64,000 nucleotides of DNA from a virus. Its lineage: Duplodnaviria; Heunggongvirae; Uroviricota; Caudoviricetes. The stretch lies in the IMG/VR virus record IMGVR_UViG_3300020577_007233, positions 61,593 to 125,592 of that record; one strand, 5' to 3'. The translations under genes and the position numbers were made by a program. Numbering within the stretch: the stretch's first letter is position 1; every line of letters starts with the position of its first letter. Under the pieces are notes generated by a model. The model saw only the letters and a list, made by a program, of their open reading frames with translations. It had not been told where the DNA came from and did no database searches. Shown piece after piece: positions 2 to 61,741 of the stretch.

Positions 2-3000
2 AGAAATAGTCAAGTCATTCAAGTTAATCTTGAATGAATCGGTTACAAACTCAAGAGGCTGTTCGCCTGTATCTTCGTTTCTTACCCCTGGAATTGCTCC
101 GCCAAGAACATGAATCTCTGAGGTATCGGCAGTAGCAAACGCGAAAGGAGCAACTCTCTCGTAAAGAGTTAAGTCAACTCCACTAAACGCTTCGCTATAC
201 GACCAAGTTCCTGAATCGAAATCGTAAACAAGTATTCTGTCGTTGACAGCATCAATAGAACCCTTTTGTCCTATCTTCCTAATTCCACCTATAATGTAAG
301 CCTTGCCGTATATAACAACACAAGTTCCGAGAGCAACACCATATGTATTCTGATCGAAAGTTGGCATCACCCCAACGTTTTCCCATGCATCTGTTTCCGT
401 GTTGTATCTTTCTATTGAGTCTGTTATGGTTAGGTTAGACCCATCAGCAACTATTCCGCCGAAGACGTAAATGTAAATGCCATCTTGGGCTGCCATATGA
501 TAGAACCTAGGAACGGACATGGCTTCCATTGTCGTCCAAGTATCTGATTCGACATCATATCTTTCGTTGTAACCAAGAATAGATTTACCATCAAGCCCAC
601 CGATTGCATAAAGCTGTTCGCCGTATGGATTGAAAGTCCAGCTAAGAGTTAGGCAACCTCTTGGGTGACTCATTGGAGTCTTAGTTTCCCAAGTGTTGCT
701 GAACGTATCGTATATATCAAGAGAACCGCTAAAGACGTTGCTTATTTCGCCTTCTGGCTTTTCTTCTGTTGTGTCCTCTTTTGGCTGCGAAGGGTCGTAC
801 TTTATGGTTACGCAACAAGTCATGCTGCGCTCTACATCTCCTCGTTTATCATACTTTGTTTCTGCCTGAACCTGAGCTTCAAAAGCGCTTTCTGGTCCAA
901 ACGCAGCAACAAAGAATGAAGCAAAACTTCTTACTGGCCCAGTTGGATTAAGTATGCTATCGTTGACCTTTTCTGTGTATACGGTATCGCTAAGCAATAT
1001 GATCTTTTCTGGATTCTTACCAGCAATAGTCAAGAAAACAGGAGTACCGTTTGGTACTGGCTTTTGCTTAAAAGTTACCTCAACAACAAACTCATGTACA
1101 GATACGCCATCGCAAAGAACTTTCTCTACACTACTACCATTCCTTCTGATATCAACAACTAATATATCAAGAGGCTCTTTTAGCTCAACAGTTGTTGGAG
1201 GAACTCCACCTTTGATATCTCCTCCGCCTCTTAGATATCTCGTTTCTCCATTGAAGTTAATAGAGGTAGAGCCATTGATGACAAGCAAATCTTTCTTCTT
1301 TGCTGCGCCTGGAGGAATGTCTATGCAAGAACAAATGTTACCAGCTTGGTTGTTATCATCGTCGCCTCCGCTTGTTGATTTTGGTCTTCCTACAAACTTG
1401 TTGATTCTAAGATAAAATGAAGTGCTGTTTCCTGTTTGCGCAAGAGGAACTTGAGCAAATCCTATTTGCTCATTTGCTTGCGTTACTACATATTCTTCCA
1501 AATCTTCATCATATGTAGTAACCAAATCGTCTCCGTAAAGGATTTCGAAGTCAGATCCAGATTCAACATCAATGATTTGCCCATTATCCAAAACGAATAT
1601 TGGTTTTCCTGCGTTATTGGCGCATTCTCTAAAGCACTCAGCAAGGACTCCTCCTGTTATATTTGGATCATGATAAACCGTAACAGGCAAAAGCTGATAA
1701 CCGTCAGCATATAGAGTATTGACATACTGAGGAGTAGTCATTAGGAAACGAGAACCAAAGCCAAGACCCGCAAAGTTAGGCGGATAGATTAGGGCAGGCC
1801 TTTCTTCAAATGCACTTAAACCATCGTAAACAACAGATGCTTTGATTGCATAAAGCTCTGGCAAATAGATGATATTACCTGGACATGGAACGTAAAGTTC
1901 CCATGAAACACCGCATGCTGGGCCAAAGAAGATTCTTCTTGCCGTTCCGTTTCTTGTGTATGAGAAAACGCCCGGTCCTGCGGGAACGTTGTCTGTAGAA
2001 TAAAACGGACGGTCCTTAGCGTTGCGACCTTTTCTTAATGTCCAACGAACAACCTGCTGTCCTTCAACAGGAATTTTCCTAGGACGCTCAGTATCAGGAC
2101 TGTCAGGGTCTATCATATAAACCCTTGCTTGTTGCTCGGCAACGTCAATACAGTTAGAATCAGGTGGTTCTATTGTCGTTTCAACCCTAAGAATACTGTC
2201 GAATACAATGTACATCTTCTTACGAGCGTAATATCCATTGTATCCCGCTTTACCAAAAAGCATAACAGCTTGAGGAGAATGAGGTGATCTCAACGGTATA
2301 TCTGCATATGAAACTTGCTTAGTTGTTCCATCGGTTAGCGTCTGTAGGCCAGTCCTAAGAGGAATAGAAGTTGCTGGCGGCTGCACCGCTCGACTTCTTC
2401 TATCAGAGAAACCAGGAACGAAAGGCCGTCTTTCAGAAGAACCCCCAAGCCCCTGCGAACAAGGGTTAGAGTCTGAATCGTCATCCGGATCGCATTGAGG
2501 GTCTGAGGCCTCATATACGGCAACATTACAGTCTGAACCAAAGGGCAATGATTGACCCCTATAGGTTACAACTATACGAGCCATAAAAGGTCTTTGTCTT
2601 CTTATCCAACAACCATCAAAGCTCTTGAACTTATCTGGGTCAAAAAGAAGGCCTCCGCTTGATATAAACGACTGATCATCAAGAGGAACCGTTTGCTTGC
2701 AGAGTATCTTGACTGAATCGCCGCCCGCAGACTGAGGCCCAACAGGATCTGAAGAAGAAGTTCCTGCTGATCTTCTTCTCTTTGACTTTCTCTTAACGCC
2801 AGACTGCGTTGTAATCGTACCAAAATTGGCAGAGTTATCTCCTATGTTGATAAGCTCCATCGCAAATGGATTGAGCATCTCAATGTGTATAGGAAGAGAA
2901 GTAAATTCAAAAACATTTACGCTTGGGTTCTCTCTGTCTGGTATTGTGTATGAAACTGTTATATTAGAAGACAACGAGTTAATTGATGAAAGAACATCCA

Positions 3001-6000
3001 AATCAGATGTCATCCTAAAGACGCCTCGCAAGAAACCGTTACCAATAGATGTTGAGGAAAGAATATAACAGTCCTTGGCGTCAGGAGTCGCAGTTGTTCT
3101 GTCTATGGTTTCTCCGAAAACGTTCTCTGCAAGCTGAGCAGAACCAACTGTAGAATCAGCAGAGAACTTGATATTGCTGGCGTCAGCTATAGGCGCTCCA
3201 AACTCATCCGTTATTTGAGCGTACAATGCAATTCTCTGATCAAACCACGCTTGTATATCTTTCTGAAACTTTACAGGAGCATCCCAAGCAAGGCTTATAG
3301 CGTTCTCGTTTACAACTTCATATCTTAACTGCTTAACTTCCAAAAGAGGAATATTTGTTTCGTCCGCAGTTTCAAGAGGAACACTAGATACAAAAACAGG
3401 AGCCGACAGGTTTCCGTATCTATCGGCGGCCACAATCGCATAGTAGTTGACTATCTCGTTTTCGAGATTTCTGTCAACAAATCCTGTGTCGGACGAGGAA
3501 CCACTGAATACCAACAACGCAGTAGAATCAACGCCGGCCTCGGTGGTGATTATAGGATAACCACGATCAGACCAGTATACAAGAACTTGCTCTGTGACAC
3601 CATCATTTATAGCATCCCAAGTTATGTAGTTCTTATGATTTCCTGGCTGAACAGTTGCGTTTTGCACTCGGTTAATAAAAGGAGTTGAAACCGCAGCAGT
3701 TCTGCTCTCTGTTGTAGCAAAGCTTGGAATTTCAACAGACAATATTGGAGAGTCAGAGGATAGGCTATAATTTCCTATTGAATTTCTTGAATAGATTCGG
3801 AAATGGTAGTTTCTACCATGAACATAATCAAATGGCAAAGTAACGATATGTTCGCCAACTGATGCTGCTTCGCTATAAACCAAATCTCCATCTATTTCGC
3901 TTGAGGGTTTTTCGCCAAAACCTTCAAAAACCAAAACAGGTTCTCCAGCGGTTCCGTTGCTATTAGTTGGAGTTTGATAAGAAAAATTACCAACACCTTC
4001 GGCTTGTTTTCTAATTATGGAAACACTTCCGCCAGAATAGTTAAAATCAGAAGGAACCATATACTTCAAAACAACGATTCTATCACCGTTATCAGTTACT
4101 TTTTCATCGGCAGTCAAAGGAACCGCAGACATCATAGAAATGTAGCTTGCAGAACGTATTGTCTTGTGTATACTGACTTCTGTGATTTTACCAAAGAACG
4201 AGGAAGTCTTTCCTCCTATGTAAACGTTCATTGGTTCTTGGCTGTAGTAGCCCAAAGTAGTTATACTGCCAGTACCAGCAACAGTGCCATTAACGTAGAA
4301 CCTTACAGAAAAAGTATCAACATCGACAGTAACAGCGACATGATTCCATTGATTTGCTATCAATGTTCCAGAAGAAGAAGCGGTCGTAAGGTCATCCATG
4401 CTGAAGAAAAGAGTACCATCCGTGTTCGTTCCGAACTTGAACGTCATCTTATCTTGGTCAGATGTTTCTCTTGACAGAAATACCCTTTTCTCCGCAAAAT
4501 TGAACGGATAGACCCAAGCCATAAACGTATATTTCGTTTGTATGAGCTTATAGTCAGAGTTATATCCATAGATATTGGAAGACCCATTCAGTCTTATGCC
4601 ACTTACGCCGCTAGGAACATCTGACGAGTTCAACCATGTTATTTCATTGTTTGACGAAAGACGAACAGGACTATCACTAAAGTCATAGGCGCTGTCGCCT
4701 GTTGATTCGTTTAGATGCCAAAGACCAATAACATCAGCATCTCTCTTTACGCCAGATCCTGTCATTACTCTATATGTAAAGCCTCCGACTCCATGAGGAA
4801 CGATCTTGAGTCTAGGTACGGCTGTTAGAAATCGTCCATTGCTAAAGACACCATCGCCATTGAAAGTATAGGCTGCATAGAAATACTCTTGACCTTCTAT
4901 TAGATTATCGTTGTAAGCTCTTTCAACAAAACCTTCGGTTACTATTTCGCCATCAAGGGGGCCAGTAGGATAAGAACCAATCTTTCTAATAATTCTTACG
5001 CCAGCATATCCGCTTTCTTGATCAGCAAAATAGCTTGAAGCAACTTCGGATGTATCGCTTGTATTTACTGCATCGCTTTCAACAACAGCAAAAAAGTTGA
5101 TCTTTATCGGCGTAGAACCAAGGCTTATGAGGTTGTATTTGACTTCTCCAGGATAGGTTGCTTCAAGGCGGTCAACCATTCTTTGAGTCATTATGTGGCG
5201 AAGGCCTTCGCTGTCATTCCATGTCAAAGAACCGCTCTGATCCATAACAACGGAAACAAGCTTATCTGGAAGACTTAGTTCAACCTTATTTGTTTCGCTA
5301 TCTATATCAACGATCTTTGTTTGAACAAAAACAGGCTCAAGCTCATTAGAGTCAAACTTGTGAATTGCTTTTACTGCAAGAGCAGAAGCAGGAACAATAA
5401 TCTTGCATGCATTTTCATCCAACGCATCCCTATAAGAATAGGCTCTAATAGCATATCTCTTGTCACAATCTAGGTTCCAAGTTCTAGTCGCTTCGCTGAA
5501 AGTAAGACTGCATAACGAGGTATAGGGGTCAAAAGACGAATCTTCGCTAGAGTAGTCCCACATCAAATACGCTTCATCAGTCGTTCCCGAAGCAAATAGG
5601 GCAACAGCATAATTACCATCAAACGTTATAGACGAAACGCCCGTTAGAGGCGTAATTTCAAATCCGTACCAATTATCATCTACAATTTCTTCTATAGATG
5701 TTTTGTAAACATATACAGGAACGATATTACCTGGTAAAGTATTATCATCTACTTCATACATCTTCATATGAATAGTTATGAAAGACTGAGAATATTCAAA
5801 ACTCGAAGGCAAAGAGCCTTGAGTTAGGTGAACAGAATCAAGATACACATTCTCTGTCTGAGGTGTTATAGATAGGTTGAAACTTCTTGTGTCTTGAATA
5901 ACAACATCAGCAGAAACCCAGGCCCATGACGTTCCTATATATGTTGTATGAGTTGATACAACATTGCCGTTTACAGACAGAGAAAAGGTAAAACTAGAAA

Positions 6001-6298
6001 TGCTAGAGGCTTTAACTCTCAAATATAAAGTGTACTTGCCATATTTGCTGGCAACAATAGGATATGTCAATACAGGCCAATTGTAATCACCTGTTCCTCT
6101 TTTGGGCAAAACAACCATGTATCCGTTACCGTAGTATCCGGTTACTGAATTGTCAAAAATGATATTTGGATTGCCTTGCTCCAAAGAGGAAAAATTGGCA
6201 ACATCAAACGTTGTACCATTATCCGTTACGCTTATTTCAGAGAGGGAAGTCCCAATCTTACGAAGGAAAACAGACACTTTAGTAATGTTAGTGTTCAT
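2..6298 (-). CDS. Giant multidomain virion/tail-tip protein, 3'-truncated by the window edge (>2,099 aa): N-terminal beta-sandwich, vWA-like DxSxS motif, FN3-like, LamG and Kelch repeats
   Basis: Manual translation from ATG at 6298 (MNTNITKVSVFLRKIG...) stays open to position 2. It is absent from the ORF track because it has no stop. Motifs: VSVVMDQSGSLTWND (~5215-5260); LamG GLWHLNESTG...YTFMAWVYP...NQWNHVAVTVD...FYVNG (~4140-4740); Kelch LYAIGG/YIYVFGG/AYIIGG with RYD..SDTW (~1-730). Confidence 0.85.
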   Translation of the reverse strand, partial: MNTNITKVSVFLRKIGTSLSEISVTDNGTTFDVANFSSLEQGNPNIIFDNSVTGYYGNGYMVVLPKRGTGDYNWPVLTYPIVASKYGKYTLYLRVKASSISSFTFSLSVNGNVVSTHTTYIGTSWAWVSADVVIQDTRSFNLSITPQTENVYLDSVHLTQGSLPSSFEYSQSFITIHMKMYEVDDNTLPGNIVPVYVYKTSIEEIVDDNWYGFEITPLTGVSSITFDGNYAVALFASGTTDEAYLMWDYSSEDSSFDPYTSLCSLTFSEATRTWNLDCDKRYAIRAYSYRDALDENACKIIVPASALAVKAIHKFDSNELEPVFVQTKIVDIDSETNKVELSLPDKLVSVVMDQSGSLTWNDSEGLRHIMTQRMVDRLEATYPGEVKYNLISLGSTPIKINFFAVVESDAVNTSDTSEVASSYFADQESGYAGVRIIRKIGSYPTGPLDGEIVTEGFVERAYNDNLIEGQEYFYAAYTFNGDGVFSNGRFLTAVPRLKIVPHGVGGFTYRVMTGSGVKRDADVIGLWHLNESTGDSAYDFSDSPVRLSSNNEITWLNSSDVPSGVSGIRLNGSSNIYGYNSDYKLIQTKYTFMAWVYPFNFAEKRVFLSRETSDQDKMTFKFGTNTDGTLFFSMDDLTTASSSGTLIANQWNHVAVTVDVDTFSVRFYVNGTVAGTGSITTLGYYSQEPMNVYIGGKTSSFFGKITEVSIHKTIRSASYISMMSAVPLTADEKVTDNGDRIVVLKYMVPSDFNYSGGSVSIIRKQAEGVGNFSYQTPTNSNGTAGEPVLVFEGFGEKPSSEIDGDLVYSEAASVGEHIVTLPFDYVHGRNYHFRIYSRNSIGNYSLSSDSPILSVEIPSFATTESRTAAVSTPFINRVQNATVQPGNHKNYITWDAINDGVTEQVLVYWSDRGYPIITTEAGVDSTALLVFSGSSSDTGFVDRNLENEIVNYYAIVAADRYGNLSAPVFVSSVPLETADETNIPLLEVKQLRYEVVNENAISLAWDAPVKFQKDIQAWFDQRIALYAQITDEFGAPIADASNIKFSADSTVGSAQLAENVFGETIDRTTATPDAKDCYILSSTSIGNGFLRGVFRMTSDLDVLSSINSLSSNITVSYTIPDRENPSVNVFEFTSLPIHIEMLNPFAMELINIGDNSANFGTITTQSGVKRKSKRRRSAGTSSSDPVGPQSAGGDSVKILCKQTVPLDDQSFISSGGLLFDPDKFKSFDGCWIRRQRPFMARIVVTYRGQSLPFGSDCNVAVYEASDPQCDPDDDSDSNPCSQGLGGSSERRPFVPGFSDRRSRAVQPPATSIPLRTGLQTLTDGTTKQVSYADIPLRSPHSPQAVMLFGKAGYNGYYARKKMYIVFDSILRVETTIEPPDSNCIDVAEQQARVYMIDPDSPDTERPRKIPVEGQQVVRWTLRKGRNAKDRPFYSTDNVPAGPGVFSYTRNGTARRIFFGPACGVSWELYVPCPGNIIYLPELYAIKASVVYDGLSAFEERPALIYPPNFAGLGFGSRFLMTTPQYVNTLYADGYQLLPVTVYHDPNITGGVLAECFRECANNAGKPIFVLDNGQIIDVESGSDFEILYGDDLVTTYDEDLEEYVVTQANEQIGFAQVPLAQTGNSTSFYLRINKFVGRPKSTSGGDDDNNQAGNICSCIDIPPGAAKKKDLLVINGSTSINFNGETRYLRGGGDIKGGVPPTTVELKEPLDILVVDIRRNGSSVEKVLCDGVSVHEFVVEVTFKQKPVPNGTPVFLTIAGKNPEKIILLSDTVYTEKVNDSILNPTGPVRSFASFFVAAFGPESAFEAQVQAETKYDKRGDVERSMTCCVTIKYDPSQPKEDTTEEKPEGEISNVFSGSLDIYDTFSNTWETKTPMSHPRGCLTLSWTFNPYGEQLYAIGGLDGKSILGYNERYDVESDTWTTMEAMSVPRFYHMAAQDGIYIYVFGGIVADGSNLTITDSIERYNTETDAWENVGVMPTFDQNTYGVALGTCVVIYGKAYIIGGIRKIGQKGSIDAVNDRILVYDFDSGTWSYSEAFSGVDLTLYERVAPFAFATADTSEIHVLGGAIPGVRNEDTGEQPLEFVTDSFKINLNDLTIS

Positions 6299-6326
6299 GA
6301 AATACAAAGACCCCAATCGGCTATAC

Positions 6327-9300
6327 TTATCTTATCGGGTATCCAGTCGCAAGTTTCCTTATTGATTCTTCGGAAACGATTCTGTATTGGTTGTACCCAA
6401 AAAGCCATATGTCGTCTCCCAAAACCAAAACCTTATGAATGCTGGTAAGCTTAGAATCAGTATGAACAACGAAATCATCGGTATAAACGAGATATCGTCC
6501 ATCTGAAAGCCCGATTACAGCCTTTGTGAAGTCAGAATCAATGTCGTTTACCGAGATCTCAGAAGATCTCTGTGCGTCAGCAAATACATCAAGGAGTTGC
6601 AAGGATAGATTCTTCGTGTAGAACGTTCCGCCGTCTTGGAACAATCCCTTTGTCGTTGCAAAAAGAATCTGAGAACGATGCTTCTGTATCTTGTTTACAA
6701 TCTTGTCATTCACAATTCCTACCCTAGTCCAGTTAAAACCGTCTGTAGAGTAATAGCTTTCGCCTAAATCAGAAACCGCCAATACAACATCTGGTGATGC
6801 CATTATATTTACGGTACTGTTTGTTGATACAACTTTTTCCCAAGACAATGAGCCTATCTTTCTTGCATAAATTCCATCTTCCGCTCCAATTACGAGGTTG
6901 CTTCCAAAAACAGAAGCCATACTGTAAAGTTTCTTAGGCAAACCTGTTGCGGTATCCGCAACAACCTCTCCTGCGGAAATATCGTAGAAATAGAGCTTGG
7001 CTTCGTCAAGAATGTATATGACATCCTTGTATCTTCTTATGCTCTTTATGAGCAAAGTTCGATCAGAATCAATAGCAAGTTTGGTTATGTCCTTCGTCAC
7101 AGTATTTATGAGAAGTACGCCTCCAAGTCCACCAACCCAAACCGTCCCAAGTTCAGGAACTGATAAAACACAGTTTGCATATGGTAAGCTAAGGTTAGTG
7201 GTTCCGTGGTCAAAGGATAGGTCATAATCAACAGTAGATTTGGTCTTGTCATACCAGTTACTATTGCATGGGACTATACACTTTGCTTGAAACAGAGGCG
7301 CTGTAGAATCAATAAGACCCGGCGTAACTCTCTCTAAACCAATACCTCCGCTGAGAATGTTAGAATGATGAACTTGACTCAAATGAGATGGCATACCAGA
7401 ATTTATCCACTCAAAAGTATCTTCCAAAACCCAATGAGGCATGCCTACATTCTTAATCGCAGAATCAACAATACTTAGTTCTATCTTGTTGTATTTTCCT
7501 ATTGCTTTCGAAAGCTCAAGAGTACCATCTATTGAATTTGCAATTGCAATAACATTGTATCCTGAATAGTCTTCAGGGAAAAGATCTCCAACAGCGCCTG
7601 ACGGAGTGTTCTTGTATCTTGAAACACCAAATCCAGGAATCTGGTCTCGTTGAGTTTTACCTCCAAGAGAAGTTATTCTGATATTACCAAACTTAGCTAA
7701 AAATGTTTCATTCTCTTCGCCGGTAACAGGACCGCCACCGCTGCCGCCCGGACCACCACCATTACCAGTAGTTCCTTGAAGAGGATCTGGTGGATCTACG
7801 TCTACATTATATGCGGCAATTCTTCCAGCTATAAATCTAGTTGCTGGATACCAATATTGCTCCATATGACCAAGGCTTGCTACAGCATCGTTATGCGTTG
7901 TAATAACATCCCACCATATAACGCCATGACCCCCCATGAGGTAAATGCTCTTATACAAAAACTCGGAGAAATTGGGATTAAGATATCTCGCATCCGCTCT
8001 AAGGTGTCTATCCCACAAAAACGGAACAAACTCCTTATGACCTGCTCTTCTTGCAACATCAAGGCAGTTTCTTATTGATAAGATATGAAACATTCTTGAT
8101 TGAATAGGGTCCATAGCTCGTCTTTCTGTTGTGTTATACAGAAATGGCGAATCATAATCAACAACTGGATCCCAAAGGTACAAAGAATGAGCCATATATT
8201 CAAACAGCCCTACCCAGTTATGCCAATAGGAATTTTCAAGCTCCCTATATGGGTCTTCAATATCAGGATTAGTTGTTCCAAAGTTCTGTCCATGAATAGC
8301 CCAGTTACCAATCTGAGGGACAGAGCCATATAGTCCTATCTTGCCTATTCCAGGCCTTAGTCCCCTAATCGTAGCGATAATCTGAGACATCCAATAGACC
8401 CATCTTTCAGTCCATTGCGTTTGTAGGTAAACATCTTGCTCTGCAACGGTTTTGCCAGTTGACCATCCAGGATTAACTTGATCTTGAACCCAAATCCACC
8501 AGTTTCTAGCCGTTCTTGGAGCTAAACCAGAAGCGGGAGACGATCTAATCAAAGCTGTTTGTTGTCTTGCTGTATAGAACTCAAGACCATCACCAATGCC
8601 AATTCCAATAGCGCTAGTAGAGCTTCCGTCTCTATAAAGAGCAGGCTCCCAATTCATCCAAAATTCTCCAGTATAGCCCTCTGGAATAAGCTTTGGCTGA
8701 TTATTGTTGTTTACTCCCGTAATGTTGTTAATAAGAGTTTGTTTTGCTAGAGATAGTTTACTTTCTTGATATAGCCAGAGAAGCGCATCGCCTGATTTTG
8801 AAGTTATGTCACCTGAACCTCCCATGCAAGGAATCCAACTATGACCAACATTCCAATCATAAAATCCTGGAAACTGGTAGTAACCAAGCATGTTTGGATT
8901 TACTTCGCTAGGTACGTTTTGTGAATAGTAGTTATGCATGTCCCTAGATGTACATATCTTCCTACCGCCTAGTAGGGGATCTCCGGTATTGCAAATAGTT
9001 CCTGCGCCGATCACGCTTGTGTATGTATTGAAGTTCTCTTTCCAACTTATTTTTTGAGGCAGAAGACATTCTTTCCTAACAATCCTGCCTATAGTTACAG
9101 CAACAGCCTGATGGTCAAGTTCTATCTTTTGAGCGTAACTATCATAAGCGCTTTCTGTTGAAATAGAAGTTCCATAATCAGCATACCAACTATTAATTGG
9201 CATATAAACCCAAGGGTCAAGACCCGTAAGAAGCATGTCAAGAAACCAGTCTCTACCTCCCTTAGAATAGTCTGCTGTCAAAAATTCAGACCTATCATAA

Positions 9301-9389
9301 TAAGCCGGAACAACATAATTATATGAATCATTATCTATACGATGACTATGCGGCTCGCCATCCTCCAACATAAGATTCAAGCAATTCAT
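6327..9389 (-). CDS. Putative tail-associated depolymerase: GH56 (hyaluronidase)-like barrel, Gly-rich linker and C-terminal beta-propeller; start uncertain
   Basis: 1020-aa ORF. GEFWMNWEP, IIATIRGLRPG..IGLYG, YMAHSLYL, LDVARRA, YLNP...IYLMGGHGVIWW follow the GH56 motif order. Asp-box YYSTDGFNW lies in the C-terminal part. Confidence 0.65.
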   Translation of the reverse strand: MNCLNLMLEDGEPHSHRIDNDSYNYVVPAYYDRSEFLTADYSKGGRDWFLDMLLTGLDPWVYMPINSWYADYGTSISTESAYDSYAQKIELDHQAVAVTIGRIVRKECLLPQKISWKENFNTYTSVIGAGTICNTGDPLLGGRKICTSRDMHNYYSQNVPSEVNPNMLGYYQFPGFYDWNVGHSWIPCMGGSGDITSKSGDALLWLYQESKLSLAKQTLINNITGVNNNNQPKLIPEGYTGEFWMNWEPALYRDGSSTSAIGIGIGDGLEFYTARQQTALIRSSPASGLAPRTARNWWIWVQDQVNPGWSTGKTVAEQDVYLQTQWTERWVYWMSQIIATIRGLRPGIGKIGLYGSVPQIGNWAIHGQNFGTTNPDIEDPYRELENSYWHNWVGLFEYMAHSLYLWDPVVDYDSPFLYNTTERRAMDPIQSRMFHILSIRNCLDVARRAGHKEFVPFLWDRHLRADARYLNPNFSEFLYKSIYLMGGHGVIWWDVITTHNDAVASLGHMEQYWYPATRFIAGRIAAYNVDVDPPDPLQGTTGNGGGPGGSGGGPVTGEENETFLAKFGNIRITSLGGKTQRDQIPGFGVSRYKNTPSGAVGDLFPEDYSGYNVIAIANSIDGTLELSKAIGKYNKIELSIVDSAIKNVGMPHWVLEDTFEWINSGMPSHLSQVHHSNILSGGIGLERVTPGLIDSTAPLFQAKCIVPCNSNWYDKTKSTVDYDLSFDHGTTNLSLPYANCVLSVPELGTVWVGGLGGVLLINTVTKDITKLAIDSDRTLLIKSIRRYKDVIYILDEAKLYFYDISAGEVVADTATGLPKKLYSMASVFGSNLVIGAEDGIYARKIGSLSWEKVVSTNSTVNIMASPDVVLAVSDLGESYYSTDGFNWTRVGIVNDKIVNKIQKHRSQILFATTKGLFQDGGTFYTKNLSLQLLDVFADAQRSSEISVNDIDSDFTKAVIGLSDGRYLVYTDDFVVHTDSKLTSIHKVLVLGDDIWLFGYNQYRIVSEESIRKLATGYPIR

Positions 9390-10740
9390 CGCTTATTGGT
9401 TGAGGAAGATCAAAAAGAGCCAAACCACTAACGCTTCTTAGGCCGCCTTCAATAAAGTTATCAGTTTCAAACTGCTGATGAAGAGGATTGGTTTGATCGA
9501 AAGCAACAGCAGCATCAGAATATGTTCCAAGATTAACCTTAGCAAGAGTATTGTTTGCCGCAAAAAACACTCTTAGTTCATTTTCTTTTTCCCACTCTTT
9601 GATTTCTGCAAGCGTGTTACGAAGGTTCAAAGGAAGATTAGTGAAGAATGCTGGATTACTGCCTTGATCTGCATTACCCCATCCAGCAGGATTAAGAACA
9701 AGAACAGCCTGATATCCATAGGCTTTTAGCGCTGTAACATCAGCTATACCGTCAAGCAATTCACCCCAACCGCTAACGGTCTGTGGATTAACATACTGCT
9801 GTCCAGGAAGAGGCAACCTTCCTTCAAGACTCTTTTTGTCTTGAGTGCTGAAAAGAAAGTATCGTCTTGGATTGTCTCTTGCCGAAAAATAAGCTCTAGG
9901 CGCACCCGCTCCTGCAAGCTCAACTCCGTAAACCCTTCCACTTACCCTAGGGCCTACATTATAGTCGCCATGATTATTCCAATACCAAACAAAGTAAGGT
10001 TCATACGAACGAAGCGCAGCTATCTTTCTGTAAGCTTTTGATTGATAGAAAGCGTTCTGCGTGCTTGTGTAGTAATCTTCATACCTAAGCCATATTTTCC
10101 ACGTTCTTGTTTCACCAGGCTCAATCTTGTCAAGAATACCCTTTCCTGGTATATTGACATTTCCTTCCATTCTAAAGTAGGCCTTAAGAGAGACAGGATC
10201 AAAATCAACATAGATCCTAAAAGGATAGTTGTAGTTCGTAGATACCGACATCATTTGGCATCCATAAGTAGGAACGCTTGGAGTGGAATTTTCTATAGTA
10301 AAACAGGGAGCAAACCAGTTAACGCCATAAATAGCATTAGGGTCACCAAACTTATCTGTCGCCGGATTACTAGGAACTGGATAAGTGTTAGAAACAGGTC
10401 TCATTCCGTAAGAGTCGTGACTCATGTAGTTTACAGAATGTCTCAACAAAGAACTTCCGCCAGCCCCTGTCCAAGACGGATGATACATACCAGAAACCAT
10501 TCTGACAAATGGAGCAGATTGTTGTAACTGAGAAACATTCTTAACCGTAACGGTTATATTAATGCCTCTCCATTCTTTCAATTCTTTTGTAACTGTTACA
10601 TTCCATGTTGACGGGTTATTGCTAATGGGAGTTCCATTGGCTGCGTCTTTAACTATGGTTTCTGTGTAATCATTAGGGTCAAGCCAAATAAGTGCTTGGT
10701 TATTAGGGTTTCCGCCCTCTCTAGGTGTAAATAGCCCCAT
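9346..10740 (-). CDS. Virion-associated protein (beta-sandwich plus possible start of a glycoside-hydrolase-like barrel); possibly the 5' half of a split gene
   Basis: 464-aa ORF rich in Tyr/Trp/Asn. It overlaps the next ORF by 44 nt and is the only gene here that ends in TAG. Confidence 0.7.
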   Translation of the reverse strand: MGLFTPREGGNPNNQALIWLDPNDYTETIVKDAANGTPISNNPSTWNVTVTKELKEWRGINITVTVKNVSQLQQSAPFVRMVSGMYHPSWTGAGGSSLLRHSVNYMSHDSYGMRPVSNTYPVPSNPATDKFGDPNAIYGVNWFAPCFTIENSTPSVPTYGCQMMSVSTNYNYPFRIYVDFDPVSLKAYFRMEGNVNIPGKGILDKIEPGETRTWKIWLRYEDYYTSTQNAFYQSKAYRKIAALRSYEPYFVWYWNNHGDYNVGPRVSGRVYGVELAGAGAPRAYFSARDNPRRYFLFSTQDKKSLEGRLPLPGQQYVNPQTVSGWGELLDGIADVTALKAYGYQAVLVLNPAGWGNADQGSNPAFFTNLPLNLRNTLAEIKEWEKENELRVFFAANNTLAKVNLGTYSDAAVAFDQTNPLHQQFETDNFIEGGLRSVSGLALFDLPQPISDELLESYVGGWRAA

Positions 10741-10743
10741 ATC

Positions 10744-13700
10744 TTATCCTCCGGGTCCAAAGCCATTCAGACCCCCAAATAGTCCATCGGAATTATCGAA
10801 GTTAGAATTGTCTGAAGACCCAGAAGATCCTGATGAATCGTTAGAACCTGACGATTGATTAGAACCGCTATCTGTAGAACCATTAGACAACTCATCTTCG
10901 TCGGTTCCTCCGCCCTGAGAACCCAGATCGCCTAGACCACCTATAAGCTCGTTAGGCAATATGCCATCAGAAGTAAGCTCACTTCCAAAATGACCAATAA
11001 CGGAGGACTGAGAGTTATCTGTATCGTCTGACCACGTTTTGTAGGAACCAAAATCGCTTATCTTTGTGGCAGTTGTATTTGTGGATGGAGTTAGCAGAAG
11101 AACTCTAAACTCAGGGACTTGAAAAGCAGTTGTAGTTGTTACGCCCTGATCATTTGTTGTTTCGATTATTCTCGCAGTTGGGTACAACTGAGAAAGGAAT
11201 CTTTCAATAGCATACAAGGTTTTTGTTACTCGGTCCTTTGTAAAGCCTTTTAGTTTTGTAATTTGACCATCAGCATTTCGTTCAACCTCTAAGAGCGAAG
11301 TTCTAGCTGTTTCAAACTTTTCAGCAGCAGTATCCGCTCCTGCTTTGTGAGCATTCCGATCATTGTATTCTGGCAAAACAAGTTCGCTTATTTCTTGAGC
11401 AGGCCTTTCGGACAAACTCATAGAGTTTAGCTTTACGCCATCAATAAACAAAGAAACAGCGGACAGATAATTCGTATCAGCCCATCCTCCGTTCTTGGCT
11501 TTGAACTTCTTATACTGATTAGCTATAGTTACAACAGAACCAAGCTTTTGCTTAACATCAAAGCAAACAAACTTTCTCAGTCTATCTGTGTTGGTTGTAA
11601 ACCTATATCCTATCGTCTGTGCCTCTCCATTGACATATACAGTAGGAATGATGTTGTGCTTGAATTCGGAATGAAGAGACAATTTCCCAGGACGTTCAGA
11701 TATAAACAATCGTTCTTCAGAACCAACAAAAAGCTTATTATCAATGACGTTCAAAGATGTTGCAGGAAGGATAGAAGAGTTAACTCTTAGTTGAGCAAAT
11801 GCTGGCTCAAAAGCAACAGTTCGATCAGTATAAATGTCACTAAGGCTTGACGTTGCAAGCAACCCGTTGTCGGTGGAAATATAGATCCTGTCATTCCATA
11901 TGACAAGCTTTCTTGCTTTAGAAGCATTTTCCATTACGCCTATTCTTTCAAAGACATACTCAGATGGTTTTCTTCTCCATAGCATGAAATCAGTAATAGC
12001 GTAAATGTAACCATTTTTCTGCGCGAAAGCATAAATCGGCCTTTGTTCCGTAAACTCGCTACTAAAAGTCCACAGTATTCCGTTGTTATAGCTTTCAAAT
12101 ATGCCTAATTCGTTGCTAACAATTATTCGTTGTCTAGGCTCATCAAAAAGCATGGCATAGGCTTCAGTGCTGCGAGGACCAAAGATAGGAGTTTGCTGAA
12201 AGAAGAATGACCCCTGGCCAATATTTCTTCTTAGCTTGTAAACTCCCAAGTCTGTACTACAGAAAACGTTACCGTCCTCATCTTGAACAATATCTCTTAT
12301 GATCTTTGCGTTTTCGACACCAGAAATCTCCGTCCAAATACTAAAACCACCAGCATCTCCGCCTCGACCAAACAATGCCCCTCTATTTGAACCTGCAAAG
12401 TAAGTCTCATATCTACTTGAGTAGAAGAACTTAGTAACAGGAGTTATCGTTTCAAATCTTCTGTCCCAAGATACTCCAAAATCCTCGCTCGTATAGATAC
12501 CGTCACTTGTTGCAGCAACAAGAATGTCCAAATCACCAGCCGTTTGAATAATCTCGTAAAACACAACGGCATCGCCTATTGTTTCTTCGCCGTCTTCAGG
12601 AGCATATCTATAGCCACTATCAACGCTTATGGTTGAAATCTGTACAGGCTCAAGCTTCTCTTTAATTCTTCCGTCATGATTGACTTCAGGAATCTGAACT
12701 TTCTCAAACACTCCAACAGCAACCTGCTGAGCGCTTGCTCCCTCAAACCTATTTCTGGGAAGGATATTCTGAGTTTCCTCAAGACTGTTGAACTCAACAG
12801 TAACCGTTGGAGGAGAATCAAAAGCAAAGGTTAGGTTATCTTCTATTTCGAAACCCGTAGCTGCAAGCTGCGATTCAAAAGTCAATTCACCGCTATCTTT
12901 GTTAAGAGCATAAAGGAGACCAAAAGAAGAAGCATCTTCTCCGTTCAAGAAAACAGAATAAACAGTAGTTCCTGAAATATCAGTTTCGGTTGTGTAGGTT
13001 TGATAGTCTGTAGAAGTCCAATCGGAAACGGTAAGCTTGTCGTCCAGATTGATTCTTCTGTCGTTATTGTCATCTATCCATTCGTGCTTATGAACAGCTA
13101 TTCTAGCTATAGTTTCTTCTCTAACTGGATCTTCAAGCAAGCTGATGTTTCGAACGCCTGTCAAGTCAATACTTGTTGAACCGTTTTTAGTAACAACCTT
13201 ACCAAGGAAAACGGCACTTGTAACAGCGATATTGCTTTCTGTAACAAAAAGATCTGCTTCGTTTCTGAACTTACGAACCATGTAATAGACTTTGCCTGTT
13301 TGCTTAAGAACAGAATAATCTACATAGTATGTAATAGAAGGAGCAACAGTAGCAACAAGACTGAACGAATACTTATTGCCAACGGAACGATAGATTTCAT
13401 ATCCATCAAACTGTCCGCCTGTCGGAATCCATGTAAGCTGAACGTTTGAACCAGCAACAACAGTCTCAAGCGAACCAGGAGAGTTTAGAGTTGACATAGA
13501 AAGGGGCTTGAGAGTAGTTAGTGTGTAGTTTATGTACCTATCATCTCTAGGATTTAGAGACTCTTGATCGTACAAATCAACTGTTGTAACAAAGTAAACA
13601 TATGACGTTTCGTTTTCTACCTCATAATCAGTGTATGAAAAAGTAGAAGCAGAAACTGTTTCAAGAAGTTCAAAACCATTCGTATCCAAGGTCGCCAAGT

Positions 13701-15429
13701 CAAGAGAACGATAAATCCTATAAGCCTTAACCGATTCGGTTGCCGCCGCACTCCAGGTTATCGTATTCTGCTTGTCTCCTGCAAAGCCAATTTGTTGCTG
13801 AGGAGGAGGTGGTCTCGTTACCCCTCCTACATCGCCGGTTTCATAACTTATGGTTCTATTTTCGCTTTCGTTTCCAAACTCATCAACACAGCCAACGGAA
13901 AACGTATATCTACTGTTTGGTAGCGAATAGGAGGGATCAAGGGAAAAGATTGTTGAACGACCAACGTTTAATTCGGAAACTAATGATGTTTCTGACAAGT
14001 CAGACAAATCGGTTCGAGTAATAGAAATGCGATTGTACAAGAAAATAGACGGAGAGTTTTCCCATCTGAAAACTAGCGTCTTATCAGATCTGTCAGTTAT
14101 TGACAAAGACTGAGGAGAATCAGGAGCTATAAAGTTCTTTGTGTAATGTCGGATTCTTTTGCCAGCACTCTTCAGTCCGTTTGTATCTATGTTTCTAATA
14201 GTTATGTAGTAGGTTGTTCTGTTTTCAAGAGATTTGTAATATGTTTGACCGCCTCTTGTATAAGGGAAAACCTCAATCGATCTAGTTGTATAGCCAGCAA
14301 GAGTTGGAATCCAGTTGGATGTTATTACTGTTCCGTCATTACGATATTCTTCAAGAAGAATTTCCGAGGAACCGTCAAATGCGGAATACGGATCTATGTC
14401 TGAAGCCCAGCTTAACGTTATACCGTTGGTTGAGTTTCCTGAAGTTACTTCGTAATCAATGACGGTTATTTGCAAAACATCTGGCGGGCCACCAGTATCG
14501 ACAGGGAAAGCAAGCCTTGTAATACCATCAGATTCAACATCTCTAACTGAAACAGACTTAAGAACAACAAGGTATCTTTGCTCGTTAGTCAAATCCCCAA
14601 TAGTCATATCAACAGATGAGCTATCAACTTCAACAGTAAAAGTGCTTCCTGTTGCAACTCTTTCTTCGTTTACAGGCGTAACATACGCTCTATACGTTGC
14701 TATATTGCCATATGGAGCGGAGTTCCATATAAGATGAACTGCATTTTTTGTATTTACAATCCTGACCGAACCAGGATCTGCTGGAACGCTTAAATCTTTA
14801 TCCGTTACAACAACAAGAGAAGATGAAAACGAACTGGCGTTTTCGCTAAGGTCATACGCCTTAACTTTGTAGTAATAGATCGTATTCTCTTCTAATTCAA
14901 CATCTGTATATGTTGCTTCTGTTGTTTCTTCTACAAGAGAATAGGCTATATTGTCAAGACTCTTATATACTTCATATCTTGCAAAATCTATGTCTGCATT
15001 CTGAGTCCAGGTAAAAGTTACAGAATCAGTTGACTTTACAGATATAGATAGTCCAATTGGAGCAGAAGGAGCGGTAGTGTCAGAATATTGAACATGAGAA
15101 ATATCTGAAAATGCGCTTATCTGTCCGATTACACCAGGCCTCAGTCTCATCCATGCGTACACTGTGCTATTGTCAAGCAAGGACTTGGAATAATCTCCAA
15201 ACGTTCTTGCTATGTATCTTTCTATCATACCCCATCCGCTTGAAACAGAAAGAGTAAACGGAGAAGGAGAGGATAAGTCCCATCCCTGAATAACACCAGG
15301 TCCAACCAACTCAGATATGAACGCCATATGAGAGTCAATAGCAGTAAACCTTCTTCTGTCAACGGAAGCGGAATAAACGTCTCCCGTAATGAAGGCTTCT
15401 AAACCAAAATGTGGGGTTCTAACAGGCAT
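10744..15429 (-). CDS. Large tail fibre/baseplate-attached protein with multiple FN3 domains and a BNR beta-propeller
   Basis: 1561 aa. FN3 signatures (TFTWTQN...YEVYKS...YTDVELEENTIYYYKVKAYD), Asp-boxes (TSEDFGVSW, ESYNNGILW), a Ser/Gly/Asp low-complexity tail, and an N-terminus paralogous to 38764..42306. Confidence 0.75.
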   Translation of the reverse strand: MPVRTPHFGLEAFITGDVYSASVDRRRFTAIDSHMAFISELVGPGVIQGWDLSSPSPFTLSVSSGWGMIERYIARTFGDYSKSLLDNSTVYAWMRLRPGVIGQISAFSDISHVQYSDTTAPSAPIGLSISVKSTDSVTFTWTQNADIDFARYEVYKSLDNIAYSLVEETTEATYTDVELEENTIYYYKVKAYDLSENASSFSSSLVVVTDKDLSVPADPGSVRIVNTKNAVHLIWNSAPYGNIATYRAYVTPVNEERVATGSTFTVEVDSSSVDMTIGDLTNEQRYLVVLKSVSVRDVESDGITRLAFPVDTGGPPDVLQITVIDYEVTSGNSTNGITLSWASDIDPYSAFDGSSEILLEEYRNDGTVITSNWIPTLAGYTTRSIEVFPYTRGGQTYYKSLENRTTYYITIRNIDTNGLKSAGKRIRHYTKNFIAPDSPQSLSITDRSDKTLVFRWENSPSIFLYNRISITRTDLSDLSETSLVSELNVGRSTIFSLDPSYSLPNSRYTFSVGCVDEFGNESENRTISYETGDVGGVTRPPPPQQQIGFAGDKQNTITWSAAATESVKAYRIYRSLDLATLDTNGFELLETVSASTFSYTDYEVENETSYVYFVTTVDLYDQESLNPRDDRYINYTLTTLKPLSMSTLNSPGSLETVVAGSNVQLTWIPTGGQFDGYEIYRSVGNKYSFSLVATVAPSITYYVDYSVLKQTGKVYYMVRKFRNEADLFVTESNIAVTSAVFLGKVVTKNGSTSIDLTGVRNISLLEDPVREETIARIAVHKHEWIDDNNDRRINLDDKLTVSDWTSTDYQTYTTETDISGTTVYSVFLNGEDASSFGLLYALNKDSGELTFESQLAATGFEIEDNLTFAFDSPPTVTVEFNSLEETQNILPRNRFEGASAQQVAVGVFEKVQIPEVNHDGRIKEKLEPVQISTISVDSGYRYAPEDGEETIGDAVVFYEIIQTAGDLDILVAATSDGIYTSEDFGVSWDRRFETITPVTKFFYSSRYETYFAGSNRGALFGRGGDAGGFSIWTEISGVENAKIIRDIVQDEDGNVFCSTDLGVYKLRRNIGQGSFFFQQTPIFGPRSTEAYAMLFDEPRQRIIVSNELGIFESYNNGILWTFSSEFTEQRPIYAFAQKNGYIYAITDFMLWRRKPSEYVFERIGVMENASKARKLVIWNDRIYISTDNGLLATSSLSDIYTDRTVAFEPAFAQLRVNSSILPATSLNVIDNKLFVGSEERLFISERPGKLSLHSEFKHNIIPTVYVNGEAQTIGYRFTTNTDRLRKFVCFDVKQKLGSVVTIANQYKKFKAKNGGWADTNYLSAVSLFIDGVKLNSMSLSERPAQEISELVLPEYNDRNAHKAGADTAAEKFETARTSLLEVERNADGQITKLKGFTKDRVTKTLYAIERFLSQLYPTARIIETTNDQGVTTTTAFQVPEFRVLLLTPSTNTTATKISDFGSYKTWSDDTDNSQSSVIGHFGSELTSDGILPNELIGGLGDLGSQGGGTDEDELSNGSTDSGSNQSSGSNDSSGSSGSSDNSNFDNSDGLFGGLNGFGPGG

Positions 15430-15430
15430 G

Positions 15431-18400
15431 TTATATGTGAACTCTCATACTGACGAACTCATTGTTCTCAAGCTCAAACATGATTGAGAAATTCTTGACA
15501 ATCGGAACGTCTGAGTAAGAGCCGCAATAAACTTGCGATGCAAGATCATTAGCCTTGAAAGTAAACGAGTTACTGTTGTTCTCAAAAGTCTCGCCATTGT
15601 ATACGTCTATCGACAGATAATACGTCTTATTGGCGTCTATGTTAGAGGTACTTGGAGTATAGTTGACACTTATTGTTTCTCCTGGATCGGTCGTAAAACC
15701 TTCTACAGGAATGTCAGCTTCATTTACAAGCCAATTGGTAAGATCGTTACCACTAAAGGCGGTATACTTCAAATCAGTTCTTTCTGGATCGTTATAGAAT
15801 CGTACCCTGAAATGCAATGTTTCAATGTTTGGACTTGTGTTCATAAAATCAAAAGATATAGTATCAACATAAGTTGTTCCGCAAGACTCTATAAAAGCAT
15901 GGTCTTCAGAAACTGTCGAATTTCCAAGCTCGCTTACAGCCTCAATCTTAACATAGTAATAGGTACTACACTTGAGCGTTGTTGTTCCAACAGGAGTAAA
16001 CGATAGTTGCTTTGTTTGACCTGGACCAAAGACTTCTCCGCCTGTTGAGAATATATCTCCATCAGAGCTAAAGCCAATATGGGAAACAGAACTGCTAGCG
16101 CTGTAAACCAAGGTTGTTAGTCCTGGATCTTCATAAAAGCTGACATTGAAGTTGTAAGTTCTCTCAGAAGCGTCTGAGTTTTCAAAGTTCCATTCAACCG
16201 CATTGAAGAACAAAGGCGACCCATAAGGACTGTATTCGCCTGGAATTTCACCAGATGCTTCCGCTCTTGTTGGAGTTATGAATCTTATTCCAACCCTCAT
16301 GCCGCTACCAATCTGTCCGTCTTCTGTAGTAAAGATACGGTTTTCGTCAACAATCTGATACTCAGCAAAATCTGTTGAGTTATTCGTGTTTATACCAAAA
16401 ACGATATCAGCAGCAACGGGTAGAATCTTCGTTGAAGTTACTATACCGCTCTTGATTCTGCTTGGCAGAGCAAAGTTTGTTGTAAAGAAATGAGTAGAGT
16501 CGCTAGAAATACTCCTAATAACAACATTTCTCAAAGAGGGGCTTAGTCCTCTTACTCTGCTCTTCATAACAACTCTGAACTGAATAAACTGTCCCGACAA
16601 GAACGAAATGTCTGCATTTTGTTCCTTAGCATCAACAGAGAATGTAAATTCCTTATCTAAGATTTCATCTTTTGTGGCCCCAGTTCTAACGTAAATAGTC
16701 ACGCTAGTGTTGTCTGGAACTGTTGCATCCCAAGAAATTTTGTCCCAAGATACAAGATTGTTTGTTCCATTGAAGAATTCGCTGTAATATTCGCCAGTTT
16801 CTTCTTCAACCAAATCGCCAGAATAGAATCTGTCGTTACCTTCTCTGAGCGATGTTGTATTGCCGGTTTCGTCAACCTTGAGAATCCTGTTGCGGTTAAT
16901 AAATGCCGCGAGATCAGAAATGCTGATTTCGTCAAACAAATTAGCGTCAAGCTGTGTCTGAGACACATCTGTAAAGAGCTTAGTTTCGTTACCAGCCCTG
17001 TCAATAAGCTTAAGGTATACCTTTTTGACGTTTTCTACCCTTCCTATCTTGTAAATATAGGAATCAGAAATGAACCATATCAAACCATCTTCGCCCTCAA
17101 CAACGTCCTTTATGGCTTCTCTGTGGGTATATTTGGCAGTCCAAACGTTATCAAGGTAATAGAGTGTATTGCCAATAGCGGCGTACAGTACGCCTCCAAT
17201 GTTTTTCATGGAGTAAACGGCAGATGGAACCGTCTTGAACGAATGAATAAATGGAGAGTTTGGAACCTTGGACCTCTTTACTTGCCCGCTAGAACCAAAA
17301 CCTGCAAATATATAACCTTGACCGTTAACGGTTGCTTTGCCTATACTTGTAACATTTCTATCAGCATTGACATCAACAATTTGCTGAGTATTATTCTTTG
17401 TGTCAAGTTTGTAAATTCTACCTTCGTATCCGGTTGCAGCATAAAGTTCCCTGTCAGACTCAACAAGACTATATATTGCGCCGCTTACGTTGCGGAATAC
17501 TTCAGTTGTTGAAGTTCCGTCAAAACTATACAGGGCACCATAACTGCCTCCACCGCCACCAATATACAAAACCTCATCGAAAACAACTGCGCAGTAGGCG
17601 TGAGTGTTCGAGGGTAGAGTTCTCAGAAGTTCAAACTTCATTGTCCCGGTATTCAAAACCCATATCTTACCGCTTCCGTTAGGGCTTCCAGTACCAGCGT
17701 AGACTTTGCCTTGATATTCAATCAAGAACTCAACAGATGCGCTTGGGTTTGCTATACCACCAACAGTATCAAGAGTATCAATCTTATCCCATGCCTGCGT
17801 AATACCGTTGTATTTGTAGACATTCGCTGGACTTGAAGTGCCTGCCATAATAACAGGATCTCCGCCAACTGGATGATAGTTCAAAAGTCTATTTCCGCTA
17901 CCACTTGTAAATGTGTATTGTCTGCTAACGCTGTCCAGAATGTCGCCTATGTTATGCAAAAGGAATCTTGTAAAAACAATAGGCTCTAAAGGAGTTTCTC
18001 CGTCGCTAGTAAAGTTGGTGAAGTTCGAAACAATCATCTTATCAATACCAGACGTTGCATCGAATACGCCTTCTGTATCAGATTCAAGAGGAGAAACATT
18101 GACTTCGAAAACGGTTCTGTCTCTTCTTGCTCCAAGAGTTATTTTGCCTGTAGGAGGGGTGCGATCCAGTATGATTCTGTCAAACGGGAGATCTGTTGTT
18201 TGATCATTAATCTGAACCGTATTTACATCTCCGCCTGTCATCGCGTAAACGCTACCACCAGAAGAAATAAGCTTTTCAAGCCTTGTAGCTTTGTTGCCTA
18301 TAGCTATCTGTTGAGCCTTATTCTGCTTGAAATCTCCAAACTTCTCAACATCAAAACGTACATTGATGCTAACAATGTCAGTTTCAAAAAGAGGATAGCT

Positions 18401-61538: not shown

Positions 61539-61741
61539 ATTCTCCTCGTCCTAGGATAGGGAGAAGCAAGAGGTTTTGACAAATCCATAAGGTTCATTGT
61601 TTTGCACGATTGACAAAGCCAATAAACTTTGCTCTCCGCAAAATTGAACTCGATGGTTGGGTTATGCTGGTGATTTCTACAACTCGCACAAACCGCTACA
61701 ATCTTAGATTCTTCTGTTTTCTTCTCTTTAGCTTCTTCCAT
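61535..61741 (-). CDS. Small zinc-ribbon protein
   Basis: 68 aa; CASC...CQSC. Confidence 0.75.
   Translation of the reverse strand: MEEAKEKKTEESKIVAVCASCRNHQHNPTIEFNFAESKVYWLCQSCKTMNLMDLSKPLASPYPRTRRM

Follow-up and report, generated by a model that had tools for sequence, protein, structure and literature searches.

The hyaluronidases of mammals and venoms belong to glycoside hydrolase family 56 (GH56), and those of phages are beta-helix lyases of polysaccharide lyase family 16 (PL16) (PMC11669647; this and the other papers cited are drawn on for part of their text). GH56 enzymes are retaining and act by substrate-assisted catalysis (PMC12254123), with a catalytic pair formed by Asp111/Glu113 in bee venom hyaluronidase and by Asp129/Glu131 in human HYAL1 (PMC11315327). 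In family GH85, the oxazolinium intermediate is stabilised not by a carboxylate but by a conserved Asn, which acts as its imidic tautomer (PMC10570127). Here we describe a GH56-like domain in a putative appendage protein encoded on the minus strand of a 64,000-nt stretch (the window) of the Caudoviricetes virus record IMGVR_UViG_3300020577_007233, positions 61,593 to 125,592. On balance we lean, slightly, towards the view that this domain is a remote GH56 homologue that serves as an active depolymerase within a virion appendage protein of about 1,480 residues in a very large freshwater phage.

An initial annotation of the locus, made from the sequence alone, had pictured GH56 as best known from animals and the characterised phage hyaluronidases as unrelated lyases. 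The second statement agrees with the PL16 assignment in PMC11669647. The first is correct in that GH56 is the mammalian and venom family (same source), but GH56 is not restricted to animals: bona fide members scoring above the cut-off of the Pfam profile PF01630 (Glyco_hydro_56) are found in 6 of 401 Planctomycetota genomes (E 3.9e-48 to 3.1e-21). The papers found on Glyco_hydro_56 deal, judged by title, with animals or venoms. A phage or viral GH56 is not reported in the portions seen of the literature found, supplements excluded, which includes PMC11669647, PMC13662595 and bioRxiv 10.64898/2026.07.27.740809.

The gene occupies two open reading frames (ORFs) in the window. Their positions and those of the domain are as follows.

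6327..9389 (translated 6330-9389), minus strand: C-terminal two thirds of the putative appendage protein (P0001, 1020 aa), from the ORF and its translation; relatives P0004-P0010 align over the full length
9346..10740, minus strand: N-terminal third of the same protein (P0002, 464 aa), joined to the P0001 ORF in 7/7 full-length relatives
7773..8993, minus strand: GH56-like (beta/alpha)-barrel domain, P0001 residues 133-539, matched by hhalign to bacterial GH56, with GH56 ranked first by Foldseek and VIA
8646..8654, minus strand: N246-W247-E248 codons, aligned on GH56 D-[FY]-E, at the C-terminal end of predicted strand 110-115 (domain numbering)
8178..8180, minus strand: Y404 codon (domain Y272), aligned on the invariant Tyr of GH56 "PS/R-I-Y"
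7911..7913, minus strand: W493 codon (domain W361), aligned on the invariant Trp of GH56 "G-x-I-x-W"
7716..7772, minus strand: Gly-rich linker (TTGNGGGPGGSGGGPVTGE) after the domain, differing in length and composition among relatives

In P0001 the GH56-like domain is followed by the Gly-rich linker, then by a middle region and finally by a propeller-like region at the C-terminus; the domain itself is bounded by an invariant Cys-rich start and by the linker. All of the peptides on which the initial annotation had relied are present in the P0001 translation and in the order given there: PEGYTGEFWMNWEP at residues 236-249, WMSQIIATIRGLRPGIGKIGLYG at 333-355, YMAHSLYL at 398-405 and IYLMGGHGVIWW at 482-493, with LDVARRA, VPFLWDR and YLNP lying between the last two. 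The interval first assigned to the domain, 7850-8900, corresponds to about residues 163-513 of P0001 on the minus strand.

Seven full-length relatives were found in the databases, each a single protein of 1461-1490 aa spanning P0002 plus P0001. Six of these (1463-1490 aa) came from a database search, together with the product of the window itself; the seventh, P0010 (1461 aa), was added by an exhaustive profile search. For the comparison with GH56, a phage-family alignment (A3) of 14 rows was assembled from 12 full-length members, 36-75% identical to the window sequence, and 2 fragments. Six near-duplicate loci (L001, L003, L005, L007, L009 and L010), L008 (12 stops), P0013 (a fragment outside the motifs) and P0003 (the window's own product) were excluded. 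The reference alignment (A4) held the six planctomycete GH56 proteins, all above the Pfam cut-off; they are encoded at loci L133-L138 in genomes G242, G072, G347, G193, G159 and G045 and fall into two subgroups, with D-F-E/D-Y-E motifs. The Planctomycetota genomes had been chosen through a 16S probe match, and all 401 were searched with PF01630.

Aligned with hhalign, A3 and A4 match with a probability of 95.6% (E 1.2e-8, score 69.3) over 302 columns (Q17-366 versus T33-373). The match collapses when A4 is reversed (probability 0.2%, E 0.27, score 16.9), when A3 is reversed (1.0%, E 0.053, score 22.2) and in each of 20 column shuffles of A4 (0.1-0.7%, E 0.082-0.77, score 12.4-20.8). A profile of five planctomycete GH18 proteins gives values in the same range (0.2%, E 0.32, score 16.9). 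Either GH56 subgroup taken separately is recognised by the phage family, L133 alone with a probability of 73.3% (E 3e-5, score 43.2) and L134-138 with one of 89.2% (E 2.2e-6, score 53.2); the two bacterial subgroups match each other at 99.1% (E 1e-18, score 132.5). The motif pairs in the alignment (NWE/DxE; LRP..GLYG/RP..WGFY; SLYL/PSIY; VPFLW/VPFVW; GVIWW/GLILW) are identical to the correspondences that the initial annotation had proposed, and the resemblance goes beyond chance, with E 1.2e-8 against 0.053-0.77 for the reversed and column-shuffled controls. Altogether, the profile comparison indicates a relationship to GH56 that is genuine, GH56-specific and remote. Judged by sequence, the domain is best described as a phage-specific sister of GH56 and not as a member of the family under current thresholds, its Pfam score being below the cut-off and the Asp missing. 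The original designation as GH56-like is upheld to this extent by the hhalign match and by the structure ranking described below, but not by ordinary hidden Markov model (HMM) searches, in which the Pfam match stays below the cut-off.

Other searches returned little beyond the family itself. A profile search of 1.84 billion representative proteins gave 6 matches, all from the phage family, and no bridge sequences. P0001 and P0002 have no family in PHROGs and no tblastn match in 50,697 phage records. Among the nearest Atlas clusters by language-model features, 7 of 30 are annotated as GH56 (score 0.91); the recognition value is under the tool's benchmark, and the result serves as a lead only.

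The fold was predicted twice with AlphaFold2, from 7 sequences (model 1) and from 14 rows (model 2). The mean predicted local distance difference test score (pLDDT) was 52.7 for model 1 and 61.6 for model 2, the latter with a predicted template modelling score of 0.67. Both are confident over domain residues about 40-225 and poor over the remainder. The predicted secondary structure alternates strands and helices, with N-W-E at the end of strand 110-115. In Foldseek searches, GH56 structures take ranks 1-6 with model 1 (E 0.08-0.45) and ranks 1-4 with model 2 among 350,542 Protein Data Bank (PDB) chains, the best being 2pe4_A (E 6e-3, probability 0.99). VIA searches of 48,161 representative chains gave 9jub_A (Z 7.3) and 2atm_A (Z 6.3) for model 1, the next match standing at 4.6. 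For model 2 they placed 2atm_A first (Z 7.2, 236 residues aligned, root-mean-square deviation 5.2) and 9jub_A second (Z 6.8, 249 aligned), followed by a match at Z 5.8. A further structure search with model 2 put six GH56 entries at ranks 1-6 (Z 6.7-7.2, 226-249 residues aligned). GH56 structures thus came first in all five PDB structure searches, with both models and both aligners. They include the comparison by AlphaFold and Foldseek that the initial annotation had suggested. Taken alone, the Z values would point to a barrel of the glycosidase type, GH56 being its nearest family. The BFVD viral structure library yielded no match at E <= 0.001 (best E 0.12, probability 0.20).

The hhalign alignment sets N246-W247-E248 exactly on the D-[FY]-E motif of GH56. 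As the initial annotation had stated for the window sequence, the catalytic Asp is changed to Asn and the Glu is kept: position 246 is Asn in all 12 full-length members, and position 248 is Glu in 10, Asp in P0005 and Ser in P0010. R345-P346 fall on the Arg-Pro of GH56 "LRP" (Arg in 11/14 rows, Pro in 13/14), W389 on an invariant GH56 Trp (13/13), Y404 on the Tyr of P-S/R-I-Y (Tyr in 12 of 13 rows, Asn in P0010) and W493 on the Trp of G-x-x-G-x-I-x-W (Trp in 10/12, Phe in one, Ser in one). In GH56, the Tyr of P-S-I-Y, the Trp of G-x-I-x-W and the Tyr of W-G-F-Y are aromatic pocket residues. The phage family shares its majority residue with A4 in 23 of the 50 invariant A4 columns that are aligned.

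P0010 departs from the other members. It reads N-L-S in place of N-x-E and has also lost Y404, W493 and W300, the protein being otherwise intact; by its sequence it appears to be an inactivated or decayed copy of the domain. The joint loss of Glu248, Tyr404 and Trp493 in this protein suggests that the three residues are under joint selection in the other lineages.

We propose that the domain would act as an endo-beta-N-acetylhexosaminidase, cutting a beta-linked, N-acetylhexosamine (HexNAc)-containing polysaccharide of the host surface (capsule, slime or another glycosaminoglycan-like layer) and so letting the phage reach the cell surface. The mechanism would be retaining and substrate-assisted, with Glu248 as general acid/base and the 2-acetamido group of the substrate itself as nucleophile. 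Asn246, replacing the Asp of GH56, would orient and polarise the acetamido group in the way the conserved Asn does in GH85, in a pocket lined, on this view, by Tyr404 and Trp493. Binding of a glycan or a receptor may fall to the C-terminal propeller-like part. An Asn two positions before the conserved Glu is compatible with activity because GH85 uses a conserved Asn in place of the carboxylate.

A number of observations weigh against this proposal. Some of them touch the relationship with GH56 itself. PF01630 matches P0001 with 14.5 bits (cut-off 23.2, E 0.017) and does so in only 1 of 7 members; no GH56 protein is found among PDB sequences at E <= 10 with either protein or family-profile queries, which give chance-level matches only; and the window sequence alone gives a probability of 1.0% against A4 (E 0.057, score 21.6), the relationship being detectable only with profiles and not from a single sequence. 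Domain residues 227-407 of model 2, the second half of the barrel, have pLDDT below 50, and all Z scores are below 8, "middling" by the scale of the tool. The resemblance could therefore be no homology at all, but a matter of short motifs shared by chance with an unrelated triosephosphate isomerase (TIM) barrel or a non-barrel fold, as the want of a significant HMM or PDB sequence match, the partly confident models, the Z values and a Foldseek E of 6e-3 at best would allow. We regard this as very improbable in view of an hhalign E of 1.2e-8 over 302 columns, against 22 null controls with E >= 0.053 and E 0.32 for GH18, of the first rank of GH56 in every PDB structure search, and of the coincidence of catalytic and pocket residues. 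The PF01630 match was not retained as support for the relationship: besides being below the cut-off and confined to one member, it is out of register, pairing residues 166-212 with profile positions 173-219 in disagreement with both the profile and the structure alignments. A six-frame search of the phage's own record with the same profile gave 16.1 bits.

The remaining objections bear on activity. The assisting Asp of GH56 is absent from all 12 full-length members, and Asp-to-Asn mutants of GH56 itself are strongly impaired. Glu248 is replaced by Asp in P0005; Y354, which falls on the invariant Tyr of GH56 W-G-F-Y, is variable (Tyr 6, Phe 5, Cys 2, Leu 1); the placement of Glu248 in the groove would follow from the alignment and its strand position only; and a frameshift divides the gene in this record. 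The main rival to an active depolymerase is a GH56-derived pseudo-enzyme, a catalytically dead, lectin-like receptor binder for HexNAc glycans comparable to the chitinase-like lectins of GH18. The invariant Asn and the variable groove Tyr fit such a protein, conservation of groove residues would be expected equally for a binding site, and the protein has further putative binding modules in its propeller-like C-terminus. Binding-only derivatives, however, usually lose the acid/base Glu, which here is kept in 10 of 12 members, with Asp in one more, across 36-75% identity to the window sequence. Moreover, Asn and Glu are a working pair in GH85 (PMC10570127), and P0010 illustrates what real decay looks like within the family. 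We consider the pseudo-enzyme unlikely, if still the alternative to be taken most seriously. The domain might also be active on a different polymer, as a virion-associated peptidoglycan endo-beta-N-acetylglucosaminidase or as a hydrolase of poly-beta-1,6-GlcNAc (PNAG), a component of biofilms. GH56 chemistry cuts after beta-linked HexNAc, a type of linkage also present in peptidoglycan, and the PNAG-hydrolase domains of PgaB/BpsB are the best structural matches after GH56 (Z 5.8, ranks 7-8, 214 residues aligned; Z 5.3 in the VIA search with model 2), with the peptidoglycan hydrolase Cwp19 reaching Z 3.6 with model 1. These scores lie 1-1.4 Z units under those of GH56, the profile match, among the two families compared (GH56 and GH18), is to GH56, and a giant fibre-like protein with lectin-type modules would better fit a surface-glycan depolymerase; a cell-wall or biofilm substrate thus appears improbable.

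A wider version of the depolymerase proposal can be entertained, one that we would sooner doubt than accept. The family would found a new glycoside hydrolase family, sister to GH56, in which the Asp was independently replaced by Asn to give a GH85-type Asn/Glu solution. It would be the first viral hydrolase, as opposed to lyase, of the hyaluronidase type, used by phages of about 0.25-0.5 Mb on a glycosaminoglycan-like, possibly sulfated, surface polymer of freshwater hosts. Planctomycetota-like bacteria, with their rare GH56 genes, would be one candidate host group.

The frameshift separating P0002 from P0001 was examined by comparing the site with contigs of four public runs from three studies.

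9313..9347, minus strand: gene-splitting site, 23 bases fewer than in contigs of other public runs, frame shifted

The two frames share 44 bases in the window, and about 8 codons of the relatives (…GGWRAA-FPSVSMAS-GHRIEND…) are absent at the split, where the relatives read through ...GGWRAAFPSVSMASGHRIEND... without interruption. Two contigs from two other studies, record 3 of run X1 and record 5 of run X2, span the site, and both have the 23 extra bases; contigs of runs X4 and X7 break at 9313/9347 with loose ends. The window's version of the site was seen in none of the four public runs compared. Since 23 equals 2 modulo 3, putting these bases back would bring the upstream frame, whose codons start at 0 mod 3, into the downstream frame, whose codons start at 2 mod 3. 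In nature the gene is thus almost certainly one uninterrupted reading frame of about 1,480 codons, and the split in this record represents either a minority variant or an assembly artefact. The phage's own record contains no second copy of the gene. A programmed frameshift at 9346-9389 was set aside, the relatives being fused in frame and the other samples having 23 more bases.

Two regions flank the GH56-like domain within the protein. The one on the C-terminal side comprises the following features.

6330..7715, minus strand: conserved middle region and C-terminal beta-propeller-like region, with weak Pfam matches and invariant Y879, T882, G884 and W887
6729..6749, minus strand: S-T-D-G-F-N-W motif, a single copy in the C-terminal region, read from the sequence

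The Pfam matches in the C-terminal region are to SGL (E 0.019) and to WD40-like repeats, in 4/7 and 3/7 members, respectively, all under the cut-off. We take the S-T-D-G-F-N-W motif to be Asp-box-like. This region is probably the glycan- or receptor-binding end of the protein. On the N-terminal side, an upstream domain (P0004 residues 235-592; about 9000..10040 in the window, across the split) may be glycosidase-like too. Its nearest Atlas clusters are GH66 dextranase (0.89), followed by DUF6259, GH123_N and GH36/31, all below the 0.9 line of the tool, and we note it as a lead only.

The virus record measures 256,820 bases, with a completeness of 51% as estimated by CheckV, which bears out the attribution of the protein to a phage; its assignment to the tail, also made in the initial annotation, is suggested by context only. 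The whole window forms one same-strand block that includes a tail tube protein (PF18906 E 1.3e-11; phrog_290 "minor tail protein" E 8.3e-12), and four giant ORFs flank the gene.

2..6316, minus strand: giant ORF of more than 2105 aa with LamG and a Kelch propeller (ORF list, domain search)
10744..15429, minus strand: giant ORF of 1561 aa with FN3 (ORF list, domain search)
15431..23695, minus strand: giant ORF of 2754 aa with a Rha78A-type Ig domain (ORF list, domain search)
30469..37680, minus strand: giant ORF of 2403 aa with DUF642 (ORF list, domain search)

The array looks like a series of very large adhesin- or fibre-like proteins, and from this setting we infer that the GH56-like protein is located in the virion, presumably in a tail appendage. 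Other genes in the window include a GT4-type glycosyltransferase at 37670..38767 (minus strand; PF13692 E 2e-17, phrog_2170 E 4.7e-37) and a second one, with weaker matches, at 56270..57430 (minus strand). Lying among virion and appendage genes, the two may glycosylate virion proteins. A 351-aa ORF at 59880..60935 (minus strand) matches Volactin (PF25216) end to end (E 1.5e-60, 205.8 bits) and MreB weakly, placing an actin-family protein within the structural gene block of a huge phage. The large ORFs at 49925..52675, 46068..49919 and 61728..63845 have no match among PDB sequences at E <= 0.01.

The family is tiny and isolated. The contigs with relatives, viral or from metagenomes, measure 28 to 506 kb and comprise 8 IMG/VR loci and 3 metagenome loci, and a check of the taxonomic distribution of the closest homologues, as had been advised in the initial annotation, found the family on large phage contigs only. 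The public runs are labelled as riverine metagenome and activated sludge, and no RNA data set is listed among them. A relative on a 187-kb viral contig (L008:3001-3963) has 12 stops in the matched stretch. Its products are fragments, a type to which P0011-P0013 belong, and the locus reflects either decay of the gene or an error-rich assembly. The G+C content of the planctomycete loci L133-L138 is 60-68%, against about 40% in the phage.

If the proposal is correct, a phage hydrolase barrel of the GH56 type, borne on an appendage, would represent a new class of depolymerase, the known phage enzymes against hyaluronan-type capsules being beta-helix lyases, and a family regarded as one of animals and venoms would extend into viruses. 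The invariant Asn-for-Asp replacement would amount to a natural test of how flexible substrate-assisted catalysis can be in the GH56 fold, for which GH85 is the one comparable case cited here. Since very large uncultured phages are the only ones to carry the family, the substrate could hint at the surface make-up of their hosts and could give the first biochemical clue to those surfaces. A new endo-acting hydrolase of HexNAc glycans might also find use as a reagent.

The C-terminal domain of PgaB/BpsB is a barrel hydrolase of a bacterial HexNAc polymer and, going by the models, the second-best structural match, with Z lower than GH56. The PL16 hyaluronate lyases of streptococcal prophages (HylP, HylP1-3) are tail-borne and open a HexNAc-uronic acid capsule (PMC11669647), which is the role proposed here, but their triple-stranded beta-helix and beta-elimination chemistry are unrelated to the phage domain; the latter has no Pfam or PDB sequence match to PL16, and its top folds are barrels.

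GH85 enzymes are characterised by an N-x-E spacing, and the same Asn and Glu pair is conserved in 10 of 12 members of the phage family. Enzymes of the Endo-A and Endo-D type have a (beta/alpha)-barrel and a retaining, substrate-assisted mechanism in which the conserved Asn assists the acetamido group together with a Glu acid/base (PMC10570127). The phage family has no match to the GH85 profile PF03644 at E <= 1 and no GH85 entry among the 50 VIA matches listed, and a search of 201 Planctomycetota genomes for PF03644 found none. The likeness to GH85 would be one of mechanism and not of descent.

The closest likeness is with GH56, represented by bee venom hyaluronidase (1FCQ/2J88), wasp Ves v 2 (2ATM), human HYAL1 (2PE4), human PH-20 (9JUB) and the planctomycete proteins L133-L138, with which the phage domain is predicted to share the barrel fold. 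It extends over 302 colinear columns, with the catalytic Glu, the "LRP" motif, the Tyr of P-S/R-I-Y and the Trp of G-x-I-x-W in equivalent columns. Unlike GH56, the phage domain has Asn for the Asp of D-x-E in 12/12 members and an insertion of about 40 residues after the N-x-E strand. Identity in the profile alignment is about 15%, and the phage family is far more distant from GH56 than the bacterial subgroups are from each other (E 1e-18). Finally, the known GH56 members are small secreted enzymes, whereas the phage domain is built into a putative appendage protein of about 1,480 aa.

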